64,000 nucleotides of DNA from an uncultured Mesohalobacter sp. (lineage in GTDB: Bacteria > Bacteroidota > Bacteroidia > Flavobacteriales > Flavobacteriaceae), in contig CAZQKB010000012.1 in assembly GCA_964593755.1 (NCBI GenBank), positions 14,665 to 78,664 on the forward strand, in the 5' to 3' direction. Positions within the stretch are counted from its first letter, which is position 1. Each line of letters starts with the position of its first letter. Made by a program: the position numbers and the translations under genes. The notes under the pieces were generated by a model. It was not told where the DNA came from and ran no database searches. It saw nothing but the letters and a program-made list of their open reading frames with translations. Shown one piece after another: positions 1,411 to 13,842 of the stretch.

Positions 1411-3741
1411 TCAATCCGTATAATTCAATCTAAATCTGCGTTGAAGCCTTTCTCCATCTTCAGTCACGATAGTCAATACATGTTCACCGGCTTCCGGCTG
1501 AAAATTCATATTGTGGAAATATTGGGTTGAGCCTATATATTGATCATTCAAGTGCCAATACAGTACTTTATCCTGAGCATAAGCTGCTTTAAAGACTACT
1601 TCAGAAGTTTCTCCTTCAAGTGTTTTGGGAAGAATGATATCCTGATAGGGTTCAGGGTAAATTAAAGCCATACCTTCTTTAGTTTGCGATTTGCAATCGG
1701 GGTGAAAATCCGGTAGGGCTTTATAATCAGGATGCTGCTTTTCATAGTAATAGCTAATGATGGATGGTAAAACAAACCAGGAAGTAGTTATCATATTGTT
1801 TTGAAAACCGCAATTTAAATTGACCTGATAGTTTTTGTCCTGACTCAAATTGACAATCTTATGGTATGGACATGGCTTGAGCTTAAGTGTCGTATTTGGA
1901 ATATCTGTTTCAAAAGTTGAAGGACAATTTAGAGACGCTATAGATCCACTTTTTTCACAAACCTCAATAATTTTCATACCATAAATCGGTTTTTCAAACC
2001 AGGTTGATTTTGAAGGTAAGTTTTCAAAAACTGAAAACATCAAAGGTGCGGCTGCATTAACGCCAACCAATTCGGGTCGTCCGGTACCGTCTGCATTGCC
2101 AATCCAAACACCAACCACATAATCGGGCGTAATACCAATAGACCAGGCATCTTTAAACCCGTAACTTGTTCCTGTTTTCCAGGCGATTTTTTTGCTGTTG
2201 GCAAAAGCTTTCCAGCCTGCATCAAGCCCCGGACGTTCGAGACCGGTCATAGCTTCAAACATCAGGTAAATCGAAGCCGGGCTTAGGATTTGTGATGAAG
2301 ATTTGACATTCGTCGCAGAATGGTTTTTAAATATGTTCAGGTCTGAGAATTCTTTTGTTAATGTACCATCATTTGGTGGTGCTTTGAGTTGCATGGCCAG
2401 ATTGGTATACATTCGTGTTAATTCCCAAAGGCTGGATTCTGCACCACCAAGAATAAGCGGCAAACCGTAATGGTCAGCGCTTTTGTCAATACTTTTTAAG
2501 CCAAGCTTTTGGAGCTTATTGAGGAAACGTTCAATGCCGTAATTTTTCAGTAACCTAACCGCAGGTACGTTAAGCGATTTTTGGATAAACACATCGGCCT
2601 TAACAGCACCTTGAAAATTCTTATTGAAATTTTGAGGCGCATAATTATCAAAATGTATGGGCGTATCCTGCACCAACTGTTCCGGCAGAAGCTCACCGTC
2701 TTCCAGCATACTACCGTATAAAATAGGTTTGAGTAAACTGCCTGTACTTCGTTGACTTCTCAGCATATCCACATAGTAAAATGGCGCTTGACTGAAAGTT
2801 GAATTTGCCGTATAGGCTAAAACTTCACCAGTATTGACATCAGTGACAATAACAGCGGCATTGTAAACCTGGTTATTTTTCCAAATATTAAGGTGTTTAG
2901 CCACCTGAGCATTGACTTCTTTTTGGGTGTTATAGTCAATCGTGGTTTGCTTTTGACTAATCTCAGATGTTTGTCTGATCCATTCGGTAAGATGAGGTGA
3001 ATGGTTGGGTAAATCCATAGCTTTACCGGGCAAGTCTTCAAGCAATGCCAGTTTGTAGGTCAATGAATCTATGATCTCATTGTGGTAAAGTTTTTTGAGT
3101 AATCGGTCTCGTTTTGATCTGAAAATAAGCTCATTTTTTCCTGGGAAAACCAAAGACGGTGCATTGGGTAAAACGGCCAGGGCTGCCGACTGAGACCAGC
3201 TCAATTCTTTAGCAGGTAGATTATAGTAACGCCAGGAAGCTGTCTCAAGACCTACAACATTTCCTCCAAAAGGCGCATAAGTCGCATAAAATTTGAGGAT
3301 TTCATCTTTAGAATAATGCGCCTCCAGACTGGTCGCCAAAAAAAGTTCTATGAGCTTTTCAAGATAGGTTCTGGGCTTATTTTTTCGCGATAACCTGATG
3401 ACCTGTTGACTTAGGGTACTTCCACCTCTTTTGGTATCTGCGGTGAGGTTATGCCATAAAGCTTTACCCATAGAAACAGGATTAAACCCAAAATGGACAT
3501 CAAAATATTCATCTTCAAAATAGATGATGCTGGCTTTGAATTTTTCCGGGACGCTATCGCTTGCCGGAAATCGCCATTGTCCATCTGAAGCCACTCTGGC
3601 GCCGAGAAGTTTGTCTTCTTTGCTCCAAACTACAGTTGATAATGGGGTTTTAAATAGTGGTTTGGGTAAGGCATACCACCATAGTAATCCTAATATCAGA
3701 ATTATAACTATTACAATGTATTTTTTTTTTGGTTTGGGCAT
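1411..3741 (-). CDS. pbpC: Penicillin-binding protein 1C
   Basis: N-terminal TM, DGQWRF, transglycosylase EDxxF/GGSTLSQQ, transpeptidase SLLK/SLN/KTG, and a C-terminal PBP1C extension. Confidence 0.93.
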   Translation of the reverse strand: MPKPKKKYIVIVIILILGLLWWYALPKPLFKTPLSTVVWSKEDKLLGARVASDGQWRFPASDSVPEKFKASIIYFEDEYFDVHFGFNPVSMGKALWHNLTADTKRGGSTLSQQVIRLSRKNKPRTYLEKLIELFLATSLEAHYSKDEILKFYATYAPFGGNVVGLETASWRYYNLPAKELSWSQSAALAVLPNAPSLVFPGKNELIFRSKRDRLLKKLYHNEIIDSLTYKLALLEDLPGKAMDLPNHSPHLTEWIRQTSEISQKQTTIDYNTQKEVNAQVAKHLNIWKNNQVYNAAVIVTDVNTGEVLAYTANSTFSQAPFYYVDMLRSQRSTGSLLKPILYGSMLEDGELLPEQLVQDTPIHFDNYAPQNFNKNFQGAVKADVFIQKSLNVPAVRLLKNYGIERFLNKLQKLGLKSIDKSADHYGLPLILGGAESSLWELTRMYTNLAMQLKAPPNDGTLTKEFSDLNIFKNHSATNVKSSSQILSPASIYLMFEAMTGLERPGLDAGWKAFANSKKIAWKTGTSYGFKDAWSIGITPDYVVGVWIGNADGTGRPELVGVNAAAPLMFSVFENLPSKSTWFEKPIYGMKIIEVCEKSGSIASLNCPSTFETDIPNTTLKLKPCPYHKIVNLSQDKNYQVNLNCGFQNNMITTSWFVLPSIISYYYEKQHPDYKALPDFHPDCKSQTKEGMALIYPEPYQDIILPKTLEGETSEVVFKAAYAQDKVLYWHLNDQYIGSTQYFHNMNFQPEAGEHVLTIVTEDGERLQRRFRLNYTD

Positions 3742-3908
3742 TGGATTAATCTTTGGAGCTCATTGATTGGTTTAGTTTAGATCTTACAGGTTTACCTCCA
3801 AAGGCGGAAAAAGTTAATAACTGTTAAGTATTGAACTATCAATTAAACATATTTTTCAGACCTTTTTATCTTCTTTCTCTAGTTCTAGACCTCAACTTTG
3901 GGGTTTTT

Positions 3909-3971
3909 AAAATAACCTTTTTAAAGTGGCTTGTCATTTTATGATCTCGGACTTCAAGTTCGAGCGATCGG
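3909..3971 (-). repeat. Cassette-end element copy A (palindrome + degenerate terminator)
   Basis: aaaataacctttttaaagtggcttgtcattttatgatctcggacttcaagttcgagcgatcgg aligns with copies at 4563 and 6988. It lies just after the RelE stop. Confidence 0.8.
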
Positions 3972-3977
3972 TTTTGT

Positions 3978-4279
3978 TTAGTACTCTAATGGACTTCTTT
4001 TAATATGTCTAACTCTTACAATAACAATTTCTTTTTTCTTTATTTGATAGGCTACTCTTAAACTATATTTCTTAAAGTCTCTAATATTTCCATTGTTATT
4101 TTAAGATATTTATCTAAAGGATAACATGTTGGAGCTTTGGAAAGAGATTTGGTAATTCCTAATATTTCTATCTTTACTTTTTCTGCAGACTGTACGGACT
4201 CTTCTTTGATGTAGTTATAATGATCTTCTAGAGCTTTCTGAGCTGTTTTACTCCAAACAACTTTTAACTCTTCTACCAT
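3978..4279 (-). pseudogene. RelE/ParE-family toxin, frameshifted
   Basis: MVEELKVVWSKTAQKALEDHYNYIKEES..A.KV...YPLDKYLK, then an A missing in an A-run near 4100. The shifted frame continues NNNGNIRDFKKYSLRVAYQIKKKEIVIVRVRHIKRSPLEY* to 3978. Confidence 0.85.
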
Positions 4280-4503
4280 TCTTTAGCCATTTTTTCTGCT
4301 TCTTCTTGTGTATAAAATTCACCCTTTTCTACTTCAGTAATAGCCTCATCGATTTCTTTATTGTATTGCTCTAAACTATCACGCTCTAAAATTTCTTCAT
4401 CACTGTAGGTTTTAGCCATAGCTTTTACAAGTTTTAAAAACCTATCATCTGCTTTATACTTGATATAGTCTAAAACACTTTTTCTCAAATCTATAGATTC
4501 CAT
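4273..4503 (-). CDS. Putative type II antitoxin (partner of RelE/ParE)
   Basis: 76 aa, acidic, ends EIDEAITEVEKGEFYTQEEAEKMAKEW and overlaps the toxin start. Confidence 0.8.
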   Translation of the reverse strand: MESIDLRKSVLDYIKYKADDRFLKLVKAMAKTYSDEEILERDSLEQYNKEIDEAITEVEKGEFYTQEEAEKMAKEW

Positions 4504-4562
4504 AACAATATTATGATTGGTATCGCTAATTTACAAAATTTGATCATAACTAATTCTGAATA

Positions 4563-4629
4563 TAAAAAACACCTCAAAAAAGGTGGCTCATCACTTTAAA
4601 ATCTCGAACTACAGGTCAGAGCTATCGGG
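4563..4629 (-). repeat. Cassette-end element copy B
   Basis: cacctcaaaaaaggtggctcatcactttaaaatctcgaactacaggtcagagctatcggg, 49/60 identical to copy C. It supplies the stop codon of the 4622-4996 gene. Confidence 0.85.
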
Positions 4630-4996
4630 CAGAAAACTGCATATTAATAATGGTGTCTAGTCCTTCTCGTTTTAAATGAATATTTAATTTACCGGATTCT
4701 TTATTTAATGTGTCTCCGACCTCAATTAAATTAAAAAGCCCGCCTTTTTCCCAGTCCAATATAACCACTTCTTCTTTTCCATTATCATTCAAAATAATTT
4801 TATGGTATCCATGTTCTTTGACATCTATATATCTTTTAGTAACTATTCCAGAGAATTCTTTAGCTTTATAGACATCAATAACTTCTTCAAGACTTCTTTT
4901 AGGACTTGGAACCTCAGCAGAAAACCAGTATATAACTCCAAAAAAACCTATAATAGCAGAGATTTTCCAAATCTTAAAAAATGTTTTTTTTTGCAT
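4622..4996 (-). CDS. Putative immunity protein for Rhs tip 2 (N-terminal TM anchor)
   Basis: 124 aa, single N-terminal TM. Starts 6 bp after the reconstructed Rhs tip stop. Function inferred from position only. Confidence 0.6.
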   Translation of the reverse strand: MQKKTFFKIWKISAIIGFFGVIYWFSAEVPSPKRSLEEVIDVYKAKEFSGIVTKRYIDVKEHGYHKIILNDNGKEEVVILDWEKGGLFNLIEVGDTLNKESGKLNIHLKREGLDTIINMQFSAR

Positions 4997-5002
4997 TTAA
5001 TT

Positions 5003-5977
5003 CTATTTTTTAGGAATATATGTTTTAGTTAGCCAATTTATATAACCTAAATCTGCTCCTATACCGATTGAACCCGAATAGTACCTAAAGTAAATCACTT
5101 CTAAAGGCTGCATCACTTACCCCTGTTGAGTCACCAACTGGACCAATTCCAAGTCCTACTTCAAAACCTTGTCCTCTAAGGTTTGATCGGTAAATATAAT
5201 CAGTAGAGATTGTAGATGTTTTCAAAGCTTGGAAAGCTTCTAGTTGTGCCCCAAAGGCAAATCCTGATTCATAAGTAGCTTTTGTAGTCAAATAAGATGT
5301 GCTACCATCTCTGTCAGATAATATTCCAAAATCAACGCCTAGGCCATATGGGTCTGTATCTCTAAACCGAAAAGGAAAAGCAACTTCAAAGCTTACACCA
5401 AAACCATGTACCCCGTATTCATGATGCAAATGTGCATCATTGGCTATTATATCCCATTGTGACTTTCTTGAAGAAATCCTGCTTAAAGATTTTTGCACCT
5501 GTGTAGCTACTTCTTTTTTGGCATTATTTTCAGATGACTTATCACCTACTGTAATCGTTACTTCATCTAATTGTTCCGCAAAATCATCTGATATAACAAT
5601 ATGTTCTGTTAGTTCTTGAACACTAGCATGTTGATTTCTGCTTAAATGTTGTATAAAAGCATTTATTTCACTTTGATCGGTTAGTATATATTCTCCATTC
5701 GAGCCAATTTCATATAGACCACTTGAATCACTATAAAGTATTGGGTTATTAAAACCAAATCGATAAGGTGTTAGGGAAGTAGCAAATTCTGCCAGTCTAT
5801 CCATACAATAAAACCTACCAATTGCAGTATCATATTGTCTAAAAGTCATTTCCTGAACATTTAAATTCAATGACTCATCAAACTGCTGTCCGTTAAATGT
5901 AAACTTCTGCCCAATACTTGTGGAAGTTGCTACACTATTATACCCTTTATGTTCAAGCCCAAAAGGATAGTAGTTTA
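5003..5977 (-). pseudogene. Orphan Rhs core C-terminus + toxin tip 2, frameshifted near its C-terminus
   Basis: NYYPFGLEHKGYN...FNGQQ...RQYDTAIGRF...TPYRFGFNNPILYSDSSGL is the Rhs-associated core signature. No Rhs body upstream. The ORF stops at 5085, but another frame continues FRYYSGSIGIGADLGYINWLTKTYIPKK* to 5003. Confidence 0.85.
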
Positions 5978-6100
5978 TGCATTTTTTTTCCGCATAGTGC
6001 CTTTTTTCAGAGTATACTATCTCTAGAAAAATACAAAAATCAGTATCGAGTTTATGCCACCCCATGGTGGTGTAAAGGTATTTATTTTTCTCTTAATTAG

Positions 6101-6120
6101 GGCTTTAGTCGTCTTCAAAA
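6101..6120. repeat. 20-bp direct repeat, copy 1
   Basis: ggctttagtcgtcttcaaaa, 18/20 identical to 6944-6963. Confidence 0.65.
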
Positions 6121-6222
6121 AAAAACCTAATTTCCGCCCCCATGATAAAAGGGCAAAGGCAAGAAAACAGTCCATACGATTCTGTCAGGATTGTTTTTTG
6201 AGTGGTGAGATTATTTGTTTTT

Positions 6223-6567
6223 CTAACTTCGTTTTGTTTTCTTGTTGGGATTTTGTCGGGTTGGGAAAAAATCGGTAACGTAAACTGTTCTTTTAGCTTC
6301 GTCAATGAAGTAGATGATTTTAACCGTGTTTCGTTTGGTTACGTGGTAAATTAAAGCTCTAAATTCTTTGTCGTAACGCGCCAAGTCTTCTTCTAAACGT
6401 CCTCTTTCAGGATTGTTCTTTAAAGACATCGCCAGATTTATAATATCATCTTATTTTTTATTAGCACTTCCTACACTATGAGATTCGTATAAATGCGATA
6501 ATAAATTCCAGTAATACTGCTCGGCATTTGAGGTGATCTCTACTATATAGCTTGTTTGCTCTTCCAA
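6223..6567 (-). pseudogene. ParE/RelE-family toxin with internal stop
   Basis: TTG start overlapping the antitoxin end: MEEQTSYIVEITSNAEQYYWNLLSHLYESHSVGSANKK*DDIINLAMSLKNNPERG...FRALIY...KIIYFIDEAKRTVYVTDFFPTRQNP. In-frame TAA at 6451-6453. Confidence 0.85.
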
Positions 6568-6785
6568 TGGTCTATATCGGCTTTAAATTCTGTTATAGGT
6601 CTTGTTTCGCCGTTTTCTAATGCTTTTAAAGAGGCTTCCGCACGCTCTTGAAGGTTTGATATATCAGAAGAATAAAATGTATTGGATTCTTCTTCAAAAA
6701 CTTGTTTTAGCTTTAATAGTAGACTTTCTTCTTTTGCCTGTAGTAACAGATGCATTAATTCTAATTTCGTGGTTTCGATATTCAT
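6543..6785 (-). CDS. Putative type II antitoxin
   Basis: MNIETTKLELMHLLLQAKEESLLLKLKQVF...RAEASLKALENGET. TATATTTG -7 box just upstream. Overlaps the toxin gene. Confidence 0.8.
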   Translation of the reverse strand: MNIETTKLELMHLLLQAKEESLLLKLKQVFEEESNTFYSSDISNLQERAEASLKALENGETRPITEFKADIDHWKSKQAI

Positions 6786-6943
6786 AATACTGTCTTTTAT
6801 CATAACAAATATAATGTAATATTTTTGCTTAACTGATTGGATGCAAGGCATTAACAATTTCATGGAAATAGTCTATATCATCGTTAAGGATGATTTCGGG
6901 GTAACTGCAGTAATCTTATCCTAACTTTGATCTTTTTTTTGAA

Positions 6944-6963
6944 GGCTCTAGTCGTCTTCCAAA
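6944..6963. repeat. 20-bp direct repeat, copy 2
   Basis: ggctctagtcgtcttccaaa. Confidence 0.65.
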
Positions 6964-6987
6964 AGAACGTCACTTCGCTTTAGTGCA

Positions 6988-7056
6988 TAAAAAAACCACC
7001 TCAATAAAGGTGGCTTATCACTTTATTATCTCAGACTACAAGTCCGAGTGTTCGGG
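6988..7056 (-). repeat. Cassette-end element copy C (palindrome + intrinsic terminator)
   Basis: Minus strand: CCCGAACA CTCGGACT-TGT-AGTCTGAG ATAATAAAGTGATAA GCCACCT-TTATTG-AGGTGGT TTTTTT. It starts 1 bp after the stop of the 7058-7468 gene. Confidence 0.85.
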
Positions 7057-7057
7057 T

Positions 7058-7468
7058 TTATTTAACCCATCTAAAACCACTATACTTTTCGCTAATCAAT
7101 AATTTTTTATCGCTTTGTAATAATACTTGAAATATATAAAATACTAAAAGCAAAACCCTATCAAAAAGCACTAATGTTGAGTATATTAAAAATGATTTAT
7201 TTAATCTTATTTGTTTACTGAATTTAATTGAAACTCCAAAAAGCTTCATTCCTAAAGTCCTATTAAAATAGAATTCCGTTAATGTATAATATAGAAAATA
7301 AATTAATAATCTAAATAACCAAGGTGTATCAATTTCTAAAAAAGACAGAATTGAACTACTATTTAATATTGAAATCAAAGCAATAATAAATATATAATCT
7401 ATGAACATAATTATTACTTTTGACTTCTTACTTATTTCAATAAGCCCTTTATTTTCATCTATATTCAT
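7058..7468 (-). CDS. RDD-family membrane protein, putative immunity for Rhs tip 1
   Basis: FIDYIFII...YFLYYTLTEFYFNRTLGMKLFG resembles the RDD pattern. ATGA overlap with the reconstructed toxin tip stop. Confidence 0.65.
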   Translation of the reverse strand: MNIDENKGLIEISKKSKVIIMFIDYIFIIALISILNSSSILSFLEIDTPWLFRLLIYFLYYTLTEFYFNRTLGMKLFGVSIKFSKQIRLNKSFLIYSTLVLFDRVLLLVFYIFQVLLQSDKKLLISEKYSGFRWVK

Positions 7469-8353
7469 TTTATTACTTTCTGTTCCTTTTGTTCGCGTTT
7501 CTTTTTTGATTCCTCTTGTAGTTTCGTAAACTTCTCGCTGTTAAACGAAAATGAAATACCTATACCTAATTTTAATTTATTTTCTGCCTCTGGAGGAGAA
7601 ACTTCAGTAATGCCATCGTCATTCTCATTTATATTTTCTGTTACTACTACTCCTTTTTCGCCATTTTTTATTTTTAGCAAATACAGCTACCGAACCTCCT
7701 TCTTTATCTCCATCTTTAATTATAACTCCATCAGCTTTAACAAAGCCACCTTCGCCTTCATTTGTATCAAAATTCTTTGAAGCATAAGCAACCTTTAATT
7801 CGCTTTTTACAGCATCTTTACTATCACCAACACCTGCAAATGCATCTATAGCAGTAAAAGAAAAAGTATTTGTTTTAATATTATATTCAGTTTCTGCTAC
7901 ACTTGCTGTAGCTCCTGTATTTGAAATTTTAGCACCTGCACCTAAAGAGATACTTACAGAAGTAACTGAAATTGATTCCCATGCATTCTTAATAAAATCC
8001 AAACATTCCGGACAATCACCATAAGGATCATTATACCGAATAGGACTATTAAAAGCATACTGATATGGACTCAGACTTTCTTGAGGGCTAGTATCAGCCA
8101 ATGGATCTACACTCTTAAATCTACCTAGTGTATAATCATAAGTTCTAAATATAGTCATGTCAAGATTATGACCTAAATCTAACTGTCGCTCTACCTTAAA
8201 AGATTTACCTTCTTCACCTTGAAAATTCTTATCACTTGTTCCTTGATTGAACTCATAATTCTGTGCTGGGTTCGTAGAAGTTACCACATTATTATACCCT
8301 TTATGTTTAAGTCCAAAGGGGTAGTAGTCATTTCTTCTCAGATTATTCATCAA
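7465..8353 (-). pseudogene. Orphan Rhs core C-terminus + toxin tip 1, frameshifted
   Basis: NDYYPFGLKHKGYNNVV...RTYDYTLGRFKSVDPLAD...SPYQYAFNSPIRYNDPYG. One extra A in an A-run near 7675 splits it into ORFs 7625-8353 and 7465-7680; removing it gives FAKIKNGEKG. Confidence 0.85.
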
Positions 8354-8358
8354 CTATA

Positions 8359-11300
8359 TTACTCTAAAACTTTCACTTTCGAATCTTTAGTCCTCGCAAA
8401 ATAAGCATTGCTATACATCGTCTCAGCCTGGCTTCCGGGCAGGAAATATTCGCCCAGATATGAGGCGTTCATTTTTACACTAAAGCTTTTGGTTTTTTTG
8501 GCGTCCAAATCCAGGTAAAAGTGGATTTCGCTGTCCCTAATATCGACATAATTTGCTTCCGGGTAGCTGTCAGTCTGGTAGTCTGTAAACGAGGTGTCCA
8601 CCACTTCCCAGCCGCTCGGCAAATGGTACTGTAAAGCCAAGTGTCTTAAGTCGGTTTGGGACAGGTTGCCGATATTTATCGTTACATTCACCTCTGAGCC
8701 TTGTCTAACCTCATTAATATTCATCGGCTTGCCATTGGCATCGGTGTAAGCTATATTCAGACTGAGGTTTTTCTGCTCTGCAAAGGACTCACCGAGAGCA
8801 GGTTTACCATTTTGAACTAATCTTACGAATAGCTTGGTGTCTTTGTTATTTTTCAACTTCAATTTTACTCCTGCGTTTTCTCCTAACTTGATATCTCTTT
8901 TCAGAATAGGTTTATTCGTTTTAACCGATTCACCATTAAAATTAATGTCCATGGCTTTACCGCCATTTTTCTGTAATAACTTAGACAAACTTACTAAAGC
9001 AAAAGCGGTTTCCTGCGTATTGAGATAATCATCTGAAGATAATTTTAAAGCCAGATTTTCTGCTTTTTCCTGCATTCTGTCGTCTTCAAGATAAACCAAA
9101 CTTTCCAGAAGCATCGCCTGATTTCTGAAATCAGAACCATAAGTATAGTATTGGTAAGGGTCATAAACCTCATAAATAGAAGCGGATTCAACAATAGATT
9201 TTGCCACATCTTTTTGACCAATTAAAGCATAAGCCTGTGCCAGTCGCCATTTTGAAGCATTAGAAATTTTAGTATTTCTCAGTCTATTCATCGAAGCCAA
9301 ATCAGCATCTCCGAGTAACGCTAAAGTGTAAAGCCGGTAAGCCTGCATATAGTCTGAAGGTCGGCTGTAAGTATTTTCATTCCATCGGCGGGCTTGCTCT
9401 TTTTGAAAGTTTTTCCAATTATTCAAAAACATCATTGGAATATTGAATCCTTTACGCTGGGCTTCTATCATAAAATGCCCGGCATAGCTGGTGCCCCATT
9501 CATTGGCGCTTCCGCCGGGCCAGTAGCTCAAACCACCGCTAACCAGTTGAAAATCATTCAACTTCTCTATGGCTTTCTGTACATTCCTTTTGGTTTCCTC
9601 TTTTTGGCTAAAGCTTAAATCTGCGATATCTTCCAGGTAGATTTGTGGAAATGCTTTTGAAGTCGTCTGCTCAACACAACCATGTGGATAGCCAATTAAT
9701 CTGGATAAGCGCTTACTCAAATCCATTGGTGGCAAAGCAGAAATTTCGACAAAAGCTGAATTGGTTCCTTTTGTACCAAAAGACTTTTCATCTATACTTA
9801 AGCTTTCATTGGACCCAAGCTCAAAGTTTTTGGTTTTTTGAGCCATTGGGTTCGGGTTATAAGTATCGATTTCAAGTGTATATTTCGCCGTTTCTCTTCC
9901 TGATGTGGCTGTAAATTTTAAATTTTCAATGCTTGAAGAAGACACCACTTCGTAATCAAAGTTCACGATTTTATCGCCGGTTTCCATAAAGCTGAGGGTT
10001 TGTTCTGTTGGGCCAACAGGCTTAATTCCGGAACTGACCTCTGCAGTTAGTGTCACCTTTTTAATTTCGTCTTCCATGGCAAAAACCGTAAGCGGAATGC
10101 TTAGTTTTTCGCCTGGTGATAATTTTCTGGGTACCGAAGCCAAAAGCATCAACGGTTTTTTGACGGGAACCACCTCTTCTACACTGCCATAGCTTTCGCT
10201 GGCCACATCAGACGCCACCAGCATGACTTTTACCGAACCGATATAATTTGGCATATAGAGTTTATGCTTTTTACTTTCCCCTGCTTTCAACTCAAATGGT
10301 CCTATAAAGCTTACTACAGGCTTAAAGCGATTGGCTTTTCTGTTTTTTGAGCCTGCCAGACTACCACCACCACCAATGCTGAAAATATTCTCTACACTAC
10401 CGGCATAAGCGCCAATGACATCATCATAAATGTCAAAAGTCTGCACACCAAGGGCTTCTTTACGGTTGAAATACTCGTAGATGTCCGGCACACTAAAGTT
10501 GGTCAAATCCAACAGGCCTTCATCAACCACGGCAATTGTATAGGTCATGGGTTTGCCGTTTTGTTCGGTTACTTGTATGTTGTAACTGGTTTCAGGTCTG
10601 ATCTTTTCAGGTACATTAAGTTCAGGACTTAAACGTTTATCTTGATTTTCAACCTTGAGCGGAACTACCCCAAAAAGCCTGATCGGTCTGTCATTTTCTG
10701 TTCGCTGATGCGGCTGGATGAAGCTTAAACTCACATAGGCGTTTGGTGTGAATTCCTCAGTGATTTTCAGATCTAACGTAGTCGTACCGCTTTGGGTCTC
10801 TACCCATTCCTGACTCAGAATACCTGAACCATTTTCAACTGTAAGCAATGCTTTAGCTCCCTGACTTGAAGGGAAAGTCACTTTTGCGGTTTCTCCAACA
10901 TTATATTGGTCTTTGTCTAAATTGAAAACCAACATATTAGCCAGATTACCTTCTGTGTTTGTCCACCAGTTTTTGTAATAATAAGCAATTTGACTTGCTG
11001 CATGTTTACCCTTTTCATCGATCACACGAATCAAATATCGTCCTCTGTCTCGCTGAGGAATATTAAGCTTAAAACTGGCCATACCTCTGGCATCTGTGGT
11101 CAGGTCAAAACTTTTATAAGCGCGATAACTTGAGCTGTTTTGGTATTTGGAGAGGTTATCACTTCCACGGTTCCACCACCAACGCCAGTCTAATCTATAG
11201 ATGTAAGCTTTTAAGGGTTTTGAAGCCACTGGTTTTCCGCTTTTATCAACACTTATCACACGATACAAAGTTTCCTCGTCTGTATCGTAAGTTCTGCCTT

Positions 11301-13842
11301 TGATATCCGGTGATCTTAAGCCGACAAAATGTTCAAAAGGCGCCAGGTTTTTCTGCGTAACATTGATGGAAAAATCACCGCCGTTTTCATAGACTTTGGT
11401 CAGAAAACTTAATTTGAGCATTCCGGGCAGATTCTGGGAAGTCTCAATATTCTTTTGAATGTTTATAAGTCCTTCATCATTCAACTTTCCTTTAAAAAAA
11501 TCCATTTCCTGATCATTAAACGAACGCGTAATGTCGTAAAAGCTATAGGTCTTGAGCTTTGGAAACGGATGAGTTGCGATGCTCATGTTCATTTCGACCT
11601 CAGCTTTGAGTTTTCTGGCGGTGGCACCGCTTAACCAGTTTGAAGTCAATACAGCATTAATGGGCTCATTGGCAGGTAATACATCGTCTTCAAAATCCAG
11701 TTTGATTTTAAGCCGGTTTGGCTTTACAGCTGCAACCTTTATACGTTTATTGAATGTTACTGCGCCGATATTGATTTCAGCATTCCAGTTTCCGGTTGGG
11801 TCTGTGGCTTTGGTTGGCAGACTAAAGGTGTAAACCTTATTCAATCCCTGAAGCTGGGTTTCGTCATAAACCAATTTGCCTCTGGCATCTGTGAGTTTCA
11901 ATTTTATCGGATAATTTTCTGGAATCGGGTTAGCCAGGTCATTCAACACAAAACCGGTGTAGATAGTATCCCCTGGTCTATAAACACCTCTTTCTGTATA
12001 AATATAGCCTTTAAGTCCTTTTTTGATTTCACTTCCACCAACATCAAAATTACTTAAACTTAAAGCCTGATTTTTGTTCAACTTCAAATAAGCATATTGG
12101 TTGTTTTTTTGAGCTACAACAAATGCAATGTTCTTATTGGATTTGAGCTGTGCCATACCCTGTGCATTTGTAGAAACCTGAGATACTTCCTGCATTTGGT
12201 AGTTGTAGCCTGCAATATTCACACTACCTTCTGGTTGAGCAGACAGCAAATTTGAGGTATAAATATGGTAAACATCTGTCTTGGTTTTTTTGACCAGGAG
12301 TCCAAGGTCTGAAGCTAAAATATTGGCCGTTAAAAACCTGTTTTGATTGTAATAAGCATCATCACAGGGATTATCGCGCTCTCTCCAGTTATACCTGTAA
12401 TTTCGCCAATCGTATCTTTGGTAGTCCCAGTAGTCTTCCTCACGTTCTATGGTTTGCGTATCCTCTTCGATACTCGTAAAGGTGTAATCGGTTTTAGAAT
12501 CGTCGCAACTGTAAAGACTTAATTCTGGTCTAAAGCTGATGTCAACCTGATAAAGTGCGCCTGGGTCAGCTTTAAATAATTGGTTTAAATCTATCGCATA
12601 GGCTTTCCAAAAGCCATCATGATCTAATTTGTTTTGCACTAATGGAATGGTCTTTCTGGCCACGACACGACCTACATTTCGCAACCTGTAGTTGTTACTG
12701 TCGTCAAGATTGGCATCCTGTAAAAACTGAAGCACATTGTTTTCATAAATCTTAATGATCCTCACATCGACAGCCTTCAAACCCGTAGCTTCAAAATAAA
12801 AAGGATTTTCTGTAGAATTGGGTAAAATTACACCTTCTGTGATTAATCTTATACTGGGCTTAGACTGATTGAACAATACTTTCTCCTTAAAATCTGCTTT
12901 TAGAGATTTACCCTGAATGCTTTTAATATTTTTTAAAATTTGAAGAGTCACGGCGCCATTGTATGCTTTTTTAGGATAAACGATCAGGTTATTGCCTTCT
13001 ATATCAAAATTCAAATCCCTGTCTTCATTAATTTGGATGAGTCCTATCAAAGATTGACCATTCTGAAGGGTCTGAGAAAAATTGACAGTAATTTTTGGGC
13101 TTCCTAGGCCTTCAGTAGTTATATCTAAAACTTTAAACACATCTTTGGCCGGTATAACAAAAGAATTTTCCCCTTTGTTCTCTGCATTTATGGGGCTTCC
13201 ATTCCAATTAAGTTGTACTGTTGATTCTTGGTCAGAACGCTTTATGCTGTCGATTTTAAATCTGAAATAGGTAGCTGTTTCATTGGTCTGAGACCATTTT
13301 ATTGATAGTTGTTTGTCCGATTGTGCAGCTGTAACAATTTTCTTTACATCTTCAAAAGGCACTAAATCTGAAGTTTCTATACTGGCATTTCTGTAAGACC
13401 ATTCTTTGTCGTAAGATTCTAAAGCTTCAAGACTGACTTTAAAATCCGGCTCTATGGTTGAAAGTGTAAAACTGTAGTTTTTATAACCGCTTTCAATTGA
13501 TGGGTAAAGTTTGTCGAGGTGTAAAAGGCCTTCGTATGTTTGCCCTGGTTTCAAATGCTCTTTTGGTGAAAAAATTAAATTCCTGTCGGTTGAAAGGTAA
13601 AGCTTACCTTCAACTTTAGGCTTAAATTCAAGAATCTCAGGATCTAATTCCTGATTAATTGATTTGTTTTTGACAGGATTTACGAATCGAAAAACAACTG
13701 GGTCAGCAATAGAAATTTCACCCTGAGTATGGGAGTAGATGTAATCTTTATATTTGGCTAAGTCACTTTCTTCAGTTGAAGAATCACATTGTATCAAAAG
13801 GGGCAAGAGGCAAAAAAGTAGGAGAAGTTTGGCTGAAGACAT
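8359..13842 (-). CDS. Bacterial alpha-2-macroglobulin (lipoprotein)
   Basis: 1827 aa, lipobox-like LLIQC, YTERGVYRPG, AVVDEG, and an intact thioester motif YPHGCVEQ. Confidence 0.95.
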   Translation of the reverse strand: MSSAKLLLLFCLLPLLIQCDSSTEESDLAKYKDYIYSHTQGEISIADPVVFRFVNPVKNKSINQELDPEILEFKPKVEGKLYLSTDRNLIFSPKEHLKPGQTYEGLLHLDKLYPSIESGYKNYSFTLSTIEPDFKVSLEALESYDKEWSYRNASIETSDLVPFEDVKKIVTAAQSDKQLSIKWSQTNETATYFRFKIDSIKRSDQESTVQLNWNGSPINAENKGENSFVIPAKDVFKVLDITTEGLGSPKITVNFSQTLQNGQSLIGLIQINEDRDLNFDIEGNNLIVYPKKAYNGAVTLQILKNIKSIQGKSLKADFKEKVLFNQSKPSIRLITEGVILPNSTENPFYFEATGLKAVDVRIIKIYENNVLQFLQDANLDDSNNYRLRNVGRVVARKTIPLVQNKLDHDGFWKAYAIDLNQLFKADPGALYQVDISFRPELSLYSCDDSKTDYTFTSIEEDTQTIEREEDYWDYQRYDWRNYRYNWRERDNPCDDAYYNQNRFLTANILASDLGLLVKKTKTDVYHIYTSNLLSAQPEGSVNIAGYNYQMQEVSQVSTNAQGMAQLKSNKNIAFVVAQKNNQYAYLKLNKNQALSLSNFDVGGSEIKKGLKGYIYTERGVYRPGDTIYTGFVLNDLANPIPENYPIKLKLTDARGKLVYDETQLQGLNKVYTFSLPTKATDPTGNWNAEINIGAVTFNKRIKVAAVKPNRLKIKLDFEDDVLPANEPINAVLTSNWLSGATARKLKAEVEMNMSIATHPFPKLKTYSFYDITRSFNDQEMDFFKGKLNDEGLINIQKNIETSQNLPGMLKLSFLTKVYENGGDFSINVTQKNLAPFEHFVGLRSPDIKGRTYDTDEETLYRVISVDKSGKPVASKPLKAYIYRLDWRWWWNRGSDNLSKYQNSSSYRAYKSFDLTTDARGMASFKLNIPQRDRGRYLIRVIDEKGKHAASQIAYYYKNWWTNTEGNLANMLVFNLDKDQYNVGETAKVTFPSSQGAKALLTVENGSGILSQEWVETQSGTTTLDLKITEEFTPNAYVSLSFIQPHQRTENDRPIRLFGVVPLKVENQDKRLSPELNVPEKIRPETSYNIQVTEQNGKPMTYTIAVVDEGLLDLTNFSVPDIYEYFNRKEALGVQTFDIYDDVIGAYAGSVENIFSIGGGGSLAGSKNRKANRFKPVVSFIGPFELKAGESKKHKLYMPNYIGSVKVMLVASDVASESYGSVEEVVPVKKPLMLLASVPRKLSPGEKLSIPLTVFAMEDEIKKVTLTAEVSSGIKPVGPTEQTLSFMETGDKIVNFDYEVVSSSSIENLKFTATSGRETAKYTLEIDTYNPNPMAQKTKNFELGSNESLSIDEKSFGTKGTNSAFVEISALPPMDLSKRLSRLIGYPHGCVEQTTSKAFPQIYLEDIADLSFSQKEETKRNVQKAIEKLNDFQLVSGGLSYWPGGSANEWGTSYAGHFMIEAQRKGFNIPMMFLNNWKNFQKEQARRWNENTYSRPSDYMQAYRLYTLALLGDADLASMNRLRNTKISNASKWRLAQAYALIGQKDVAKSIVESASIYEVYDPYQYYTYGSDFRNQAMLLESLVYLEDDRMQEKAENLALKLSSDDYLNTQETAFALVSLSKLLQKNGGKAMDINFNGESVKTNKPILKRDIKLGENAGVKLKLKNNKDTKLFVRLVQNGKPALGESFAEQKNLSLNIAYTDANGKPMNINEVRQGSEVNVTINIGNLSQTDLRHLALQYHLPSGWEVVDTSFTDYQTDSYPEANYVDIRDSEIHFYLDLDAKKTKSFSVKMNASYLGEYFLPGSQAETMYSNAYFARTKDSKVKVLE

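Follow-up and report, generated by a model that had tools for sequence, protein, structure and literature searches.

A REP hairpin fused to a predicted terminator likely marks, and may help make, the joints of toxin-cassette swaps in Flavobacteriaceae

The 64,000-nucleotide stretch analyzed here (the window), from contig CAZQKB010000012.1 of an uncultured Mesohalobacter sp., carries three copies of a short repeat in which a hairpin is fused to a predicted transcription terminator, each behind a gene of a toxin island. Judged from its sequence, the hairpin is the repetitive extragenic palindrome (REP) of a subclass-2.6 TnpA-REP, or REP-associated tyrosine transposase (RAYT), of the HUH/Y1 family. 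Across the Flavobacteriaceae, the RAYT and its hairpins are often found right behind Rhs toxin–immunity pairs. These hairpins likely mark, and may help make, the joints of toxin-cassette swaps. It is close to an even call that a RAYT linked each new Rhs or toxin–antitoxin (TA) cassette to the downstream unit and that the composite element marks this joint; such joints would be the work of the RAYT, and recombination through the shared repeat fits the data too. The hairpin belongs to a known REP family, and the tie of its RAYT to Rhs immunity genes appears to be the new part.

The identity of the hairpin is indicated by the subclass-2.6 REP of F. johnsoniae, which is its reverse complement, stem substitutions aside, as tabulated in Table S1 of PMC6006769. 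Members of this hairpin family in relatives have GATAG or GATCG as the foot. In the metagenome locus L051, inverted hairpin copies flank an intact RAYT gene directly behind the same alpha-2-macroglobulin (A2M) gene that borders the island in the window, and the first of these copies shares the tail of the window copies. The L051 RAYT scores 99.7 bits against NF047646 (cut-off 80) and carries the motifs NHIH, WQ, and YIHRNP; cognate tnpA-REP genes flanked by copies and encoding NH[LIV]H, WQ, and YIH[QN]NP-like motifs are found in L051, L112, and other relatives. A sequence-only reading of the window had proposed a REP-like hairpin for an HUH enzyme, and the match to the published REP together with the RAYT genes flanked by it in relatives bears this out. 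The adjacency to a RAYT gene that it named as a possible support holds in L051 and other relatives but not in this assembly. The island itself holds no RAYT and so does not form a REPtron, and the window copies are single and direct rather than paired as in a REPIN (two REPs facing opposite ways across a short spacer), an arrangement that the relatives' copies beside sucB do show.

The genome's three Y1 transposases were considered as the cognate enzyme and rejected, each being flanked by other repeat families. Y1 transposases amid their own tandem hairpin repeats lie at G000:C12:82235-82696 (~3.6 kb beyond the window), G000:C7:121969, and G000:C5:32469, G000 being the window's genome.

The polarity of the element comes from a hand-assembled set of 26 hairpin-plus-terminator copies, from which bare hairpins, duplicates, and three chance matches were left out (pattern matches in L035, L040, and L044, all inside GC-rich genes). 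Among the 325 pairs that these copies form, homology of at least 30 bases beyond the copies was found downstream only in 36, upstream only in none, and on both sides in one. Because homology extends downstream and never upstream alone, the element is best read from these alignments as the left (5') edge of the downstream unit, and the earlier view that it forms the 3' end of the upstream cassette is not supported. Three REP families, sampled with 90, 53, and 21 copies, have a C-rich tract 5' of the foot; beyond this tract, the upstream sequence of the two larger sets carries almost no information. In G021, TA pair 1 meets a REP ~20 bases further on, at another C-run, and the bases skipped in that joint do not recur behind copy A.

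Joints were also surveyed in contigs of public sequencing runs, matched at 85% likeness and derived from relatives of the strain. The terminator is joined directly to the Rhs leader, without TA pair 2, in contigs of X4, X11, X12, and X14 (joints at 6121/6124 to 6989/6990), and contigs of X6 and X12 hold other tips between the Rhs core and the REP. Different genes are found 5' of the foot in public-run contigs, and TA pair 2 is joined to another REP family in two metagenomes (X8 and X12). Joints in the runs that go back along the array fit the repeat order of other arrays. The source sample also yielded four short pieces from an RNA library, which do not count as evidence of expression.

Of the 26 copies, 23 could be classified by their upstream gene, the other three lying too close to a contig end or gap: 13 follow an Rhs immunity-type gene, with the Rhs core 0.9–1.5 kb upstream, four a ParE toxin gene, three a small gene behind a RAYT, and three other genes. 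Thus, 17 of the 23 follow Rhs-immunity or TA genes, which agrees with the link that had been proposed from the window alone. On the metagenome contig L041, six hairpin-plus-terminator units separate two Rhs tip–immunity pairs, three ParE pairs, and one RAYT, and other 2.6-type REP families occupy the same site behind immunity genes in other arrays, for example in G015. Inverted doublets of ~160 bp, whose left half is the hairpin plus terminator, stand next to sucB and in L041.

A covariance model (CM) trained on 19 copies, the window's three included, gives seven hits in the window's genome: three in the island and four elsewhere, by uxaA, by a thioredoxin-fold gene, by a GIN-domain gene, and in an accessory-gene region (the labels uxaA, sucB, lepA, and XRE used in this analysis come partly from reading translations). 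With seven hits, the repeat is not a high-copy REP scattered after arbitrary genes; some copies nonetheless follow housekeeping genes. An empty-site comparison of these housekeeping copies gave no clean filled and empty pair because the intergenic DNA is too diverged. Within the genus, 20 of 41 genomes have any CM hit and seven have one above 45 bits, and the fused hairpin and terminator is also found on metagenome contigs. A strict hairpin–tail–terminator pattern matched none of 400 family genomes other than G000 and no viral contig, and therefore the fused form looks limited to the genus; the pattern is a strict one, as the CM finds the fused form in several genus genomes. A loose regular expression run over the whole genome gave 40 matches against 26 on the reversed genome and is too noisy for a copy count.

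At two sites next to housekeeping genes, a single REP in the window's genome is replaced in the closest relative, G462, by a small TA-like pair or a small membrane gene (L271:730-1279, L257:2236-2445). At L004:1800-14800 (G000:C7), a 70–190 bp upstream block and REP hairpins occur four times between accessory genes (serine hydrolases, SnoaL-like, DoxX-like). At L117:6446-7650 in G017, a Gp49/helix-turn-helix (HTH) TA-type pair lies between direct REP repeats with ~45 bp in common.

The tie to Rhs genes extends to the RAYT itself. Of the 56 genomes with a subclass-2.6 RAYT match, 40 contributed their best locus, one per genus with top scores first and the same-genus genome skipped. An Rhs core lies within 6 kb in 17 of the 40, always upstream on the same strand and mostly 1.4–2.2 kb off. 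The open reading frames (ORFs) at these loci run from Rhs through a small gene of immunity type, in some cases also an HTH gene, to the RAYT; one of the 17 holds only a small Rhs remnant. Class-1 Y1 transposases (TnpA) like the window genome's own occur in 23 genomes; in the 20 of these that served as controls, no Rhs core lies within 6 kb of the locus (0/20). The difference has a Fisher p of 5e-4, the genera being not fully independent, and by hand count it amounts to 17 of 26 against 0 of 9 when limited to Rhs-holding genomes. In the RAYT tree, Rhs-linked members fall in three of the four main clades, one clade of seven having none, and well-supported branches force at least eight changes of the Rhs label. 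The label is not clustered beyond shuffles (13 changes against a mean of ~14.8, with L233 left out).

Individual RAYT loci show further arrangements. An Rhs tip–immunity array at L111:4300-15200 (G463) holds four RAYT copies at ~87–99% DNA identity and a further REP family. ORFs at L149:3140-4459 and L115:10374-12239 start as the N-terminal part of a subclass-2.6 RAYT and continue in frame into other island sequence, which in L115 reaches an Rhs core; a REP lies just upstream of both.

By likeness to better-known enzymes, we infer that the subclass-2.6 RAYT makes the downstream joint of an incoming tip–immunity or TA cassette. In groups 2 and 3, TnpA-REP proteins use the foot as a guide to cleave single-stranded DNA at dinucleotides on the 5' or 3' side of the hairpin, and they are also able to join strands; the cleavage work in the accessible portion of PMC8266576 is limited to these two groups. 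Bound to the hairpin in single-stranded DNA, the RAYT would cut in or close to the C-rich tract on the 5' side of the foot and attach the new upstream end at that point; the other crossover of the incoming cassette would come from host recombination in the conserved Rhs core. The terminator would block read-through into the next cassette, which has its own upstream region, and the seeded repeat (70–170 bp) would also act as a homology arm. As a broader proposal, put forward tentatively, subclass-2.6 RAYTs may be domesticated single-stranded DNA recombinases that build and reshuffle Rhs and TA cassette arrays in Bacteroidota, with REPs as the junction sites.

Several results weigh against joints made by the RAYT. 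No cognate RAYT was found in the window's assembly, which is 94.9% complete, and the literature searched, as far as its accessible text goes, holds no subclass-2.6 biochemistry. The 26 copies are not independent, six coming from contig L041, and many of the 36 pairs with downstream homology share one linker. Three classifiable copies stand behind other genes, bare hairpins cluster by housekeeping genes in G017, and 23 of the 40 RAYT loci are without Rhs. The three searched REP families are absent from many Rhs arrays of the genus (G025, G007, G020, G028, G036, most of G029, and one in G015), and in the closest relative the gap between A2M and pbpC contains only a ParE pair and no REP. Neither stem of the element has covariation above shuffles. 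The swaps, finally, were seen as joints in assembled contigs only, where circles and exact excision are unreadable, and a crossover within the shared repeat could produce every one of them.

This last point leads to the chief alternative, a genuine possibility: the RAYT only seeds REPs or doublets behind island genes, and cassettes are exchanged by homologous recombination, with the Rhs core as the upstream arm and the shared REP, terminator, and linker as the downstream one. It would account for the ~160-bp inverted doublets, for a common block ~70–200 bp long, and for the persistence of arrays in G000 and G029, in which no cognate RAYT was found. Orphan modules are known to be exchanged by homology (PMC5361080, in the sections available). 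This alternative would also require REPs to have inserted independently many times directly after different immunity genes, given that the upstream ORFs of the 13 Rhs-linked copies yield one homologous pair (the ORF caller missed one such gene), and alone it leaves unexplained why the RAYT sits behind an immunity gene in 17 of 40 genera while the related Y1 transposase does so in 0 of 20.

That control also counts against a passive origin, in which REPs and RAYTs pile up in islands of horizontal origin that tolerate them, and the composite is retained only as a terminator or mRNA stabilizer behind immunity and TA genes. Such an origin is unlikely. The terminator-like sites predicted for copies B and C fit it, as do REP feet known to provide stop codons (PMC3733652, from the text available) and the other small inserts that the closest relative has at the A2M–pbpC gap and at two sites of housekeeping copies. 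Yet the control transposase has no Rhs link, all 17 cases are on one side and one strand, and at the foot the flanks are replaced rather than interrupted. An integron attC-like or Xer-type site of a tyrosine recombinase is very improbable. An array with TA pairs does resemble an integron, the element that holds one of the copies also has XerC/D-like genes in tandem (L045), and XerC/D genes are described beside polyimmunity loci in the accessible part of PMC3482391. No RYYYAAC...GTTRRRY frame surrounds any of the three copies, however, and no integron integrase in the genome exceeds the cut-off (TIGR02249, best match 123.8 bits against 265); on these two grounds the attC/integron reading was rejected, and the hairpin is in addition a REP that flanks RAYT genes.

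The 123.8-bit match is a tyrosine recombinase at G000:C16:9808-10617, in a 604-codon open frame. The loci L045:1000-5500, L147-L148, L151-L154, and L162 are small elements in which a primase-like gene is accompanied by a tandem pair of XerC/D-like recombinases, an orphan Rhs tip, and immunity-type and HTH genes. Their Rhs tips have the same leader type as the window's, and these elements are a likely vehicle for orphan Rhs modules.

The three copies in the window exist as first described. They lie in register on the minus strand (repeat family D1), with identities of 49/60 for B and C, the figure originally given, 44/67 for A and B, and 46/67 for A and C. The best other CM site in the window reaches 14.5 bits, against 64.4–93.6 for the copies, and the scan gave no fourth copy ahead of the Rhs leader. 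Each element reads as a C-rich stretch of 3–4 nt, a 5-nt foot (GATCG in A, GATAG in B, GAACA in C), a hairpin of 8 bp whose loop is TG(C/T), an A/T-rich tail of 15–16 nt, and a terminator stem of 6 bp with a T run. Sequence conservation continues ~45 bp past the terminator of copy C. No Rfam family reaches its gathering score for the element (best E 0.85).

Some details of the original description need amending for copy A. It begins with ACCGA, not the CCCGA claimed for all copies, and of the terminators said to follow each copy, degenerate in A, those of B and C are predicted as intrinsic terminator-like sites, with a GC-rich stem and U run on the coding strand, whereas none is called at A. 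DNA folding gives z = -4.0 for copy C and z ~ -1 for A and B, not better than shuffles, and the hairpins of A and B contain mismatches. A start near a stop codon, one copy supplying the stop, holds for B, whose foot contains the TAG of the upstream gene, and for C, where the stop ends 4 nt before the foot; near A, the TAA at 3978-3980 ends the second frame of a frameshifted ParE gene.

The copies sit in a 4.6-kb island with a GC content of 32%, against 39–40% in the flanking genes (Table 1). In reading order, it contains Rhs tip 2, an immunity candidate, copy C, TA pair 2, Rhs module 1, an immunity candidate, copy B, TA pair 1, and copy A. The genes behind which the copies stand, two immunity candidates and a ParE toxin, are unrelated, as had been noticed at the outset. 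A core end with a variable tip followed by a small gene, in tandem, identifies a predicted orphan Rhs toxin–immunity array, and its two TIGR03696 matches are the only Rhs cores in the whole genome. Immunity candidate 2 matches no Pfam or NCBIfam family. The leader of module 1 is common to relatives, and its tip–immunity piece recurs at ~95% in two other metagenomes; the start codon of this leader is covered by an 11-bp hairpin (window 6051-6076). TA pair 1 is 84% identical to an intact pair in G021, and TA pair 2 has 88% DNA identity to a pair in L041 whose toxin has a weak ParE match. Among 16 genus relatives with the A2M C terminus, pbpC lies directly behind in 10, a lone ParE pair in the closest relative, and other genes in three, and the contig is too short or broken in two; no REP was found at the A2M site in any of the 16. 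Both ParE genes and Rhs tip 2, three genes of the island, are broken; because of this, and because no cognate RAYT was found in the assembly, the array in this genome looks like an inactive, decaying relic.

Table 1. Repeat copies and neighboring features in the window
Feature	Position	Strand	Details
pbpC (penicillin-binding protein 1C)	1411..3741	(-)	Downstream border of island
Copy A	3901..3974 (D1 repeat 3900-3972)	(-)	REP hairpin 3946-3964, foot 3965-3969, terminator decayed; CM 64.4 bits
TA pair 1	3978..4503	(-)	Antitoxin-like 4273-4503; ParE toxin 3978-4279 (PF05016), frameshifted near 4098
Copy B	4558..4631 (D1 repeat 4557-4629)	(-)	Mismatched REP hairpin 4603-4621, foot 4622-4626, terminator-like stem 4570-4585; CM 79.7 bits
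Immunity candidate 1	4622..4996	(-)	124 aa; named by position; 3' end inside foot of copy B
Orphan Rhs module 1	5085..6065	(-)	Conserved leader, Rhs core end, C-terminal toxin-type tip; TIGR03696 50.3 bits
Linker remainder and upstream region of orphan Rhs leader	6066..6125	(-)	~20 bp repeat linker behind copy C (repeat family D3)
TA pair 2	6223..6782	(-)	Antitoxin-like gene and ParE-like toxin, in-frame stop 6451-6453
Conserved linker behind copy C	6942..6984	(-)	In relatives continues directly into orphan Rhs leader
Copy C	6985..7058 (D1 repeat 6984-7056)	(-)	REP hairpin 7030-7048, foot 7049-7053, tail, terminator-like stem 6993-7016; CM 93.6 bits
Immunity candidate 2	7058..7468	(-)	136 aa, hydrophobic; named by position only
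Orphan Rhs core end and C-terminal toxin-type tip 2	7465..8353	(-)	ORF 7625-8353; apparent frameshift near 7670; TIGR03696 33.4 bits, cut-off 32.5
A2M gene	8359..13842	(-)	Upstream border of island

Two questions meet in these arrays: why bacteria retain RAYT genes and how polymorphic toxin loci form their non-homologous joint. RAYTs are viewed as domesticated, with an obscure benefit to the host (PMC5581495 and 10.1101/2021.07.10.451892, in the parts available). In the accessible sections of PMC5361080, no recombinase is known to assist the Vibrio insertions, and the non-homologous route for a new tip and immunity gene is called rare. If RAYTs do build the arrays, an HUH nuclease would be running an integron-like system, one that gives RAYTs a host function and provides an enzyme for the non-homologous end of Rhs tip displacement. 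The fixed order of Rhs, immunity gene, REP, and RAYT in 17 of 40 genera, with a named enzyme and substrate, makes both questions testable. Even under a passive reading, the REP marks cassette borders in Flavobacteriaceae toxin islands. A full-text literature search, with most subscription journals outside it, found no paper tying subclass-2.6 RAYTs or REPs to Rhs immunity genes.

The closest known system is the subclass-2.6 REP/REPtron (Quentin et al. 2018, PMC6006769; group 5 of Bertels), with which the window shares the hairpin family and an atypical, non-GTAG foot. In relatives, a Bacteroidota RAYT that has the subclass motifs lies between inverted copies, and extra copies lie elsewhere in the genome. 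Here, by contrast, the REP is fused to a terminator, stands head-to-tail behind unrelated cassettes, and is tied to Rhs immunity genes, a link that the available text of PMC6006769 does not describe; the cognate RAYT was not found in this genome. REPINs and bacterial interspersed mosaic elements (BIMEs) are doublets moved by group 2/3 RAYTs. The relatives' inverted doublets of this composite, feet outward, resemble them, whereas the window copies are single left halves in direct repeat, few in number (seven CM hits in the genome), and placed between passenger cassettes.

Orphan Rhs arrays, which arise by C-terminal displacement and homology-facilitated illegitimate recombination, share with this locus the tandem core-end, tip, and immunity modules and the conserved core as a homology anchor; as far as the accessible parts of PMC5361080 and PMC3482391 go, the difference here is that the downstream joint falls at a fixed REP edge and is not arbitrary. 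A RAYT co-localized with hypervariable genes and proposed as a diversifying recombinase is also known from the subclass-2.1 TnpA-REP beside prochlorosin genes, where the authors, in the text available, left causality open (10.1101/2020.03.09.984088). The subclass, phylum, and cargo are different here, and cognate REPs are found at the cassette joints. Integrons likewise have head-to-tail cassettes parted by a hairpin repeat, TA pairs included, but the arrays described here have neither attC boxes nor an integron integrase; their candidate enzyme is a nuclease of the HUH Y1 type, and the site lies at the 5' edge of the downstream unit. The recombinase-associated acquired interbacterial defense (rAID) immunity arrays of gut Bacteroidales are similar head-to-tail cassette arrays.

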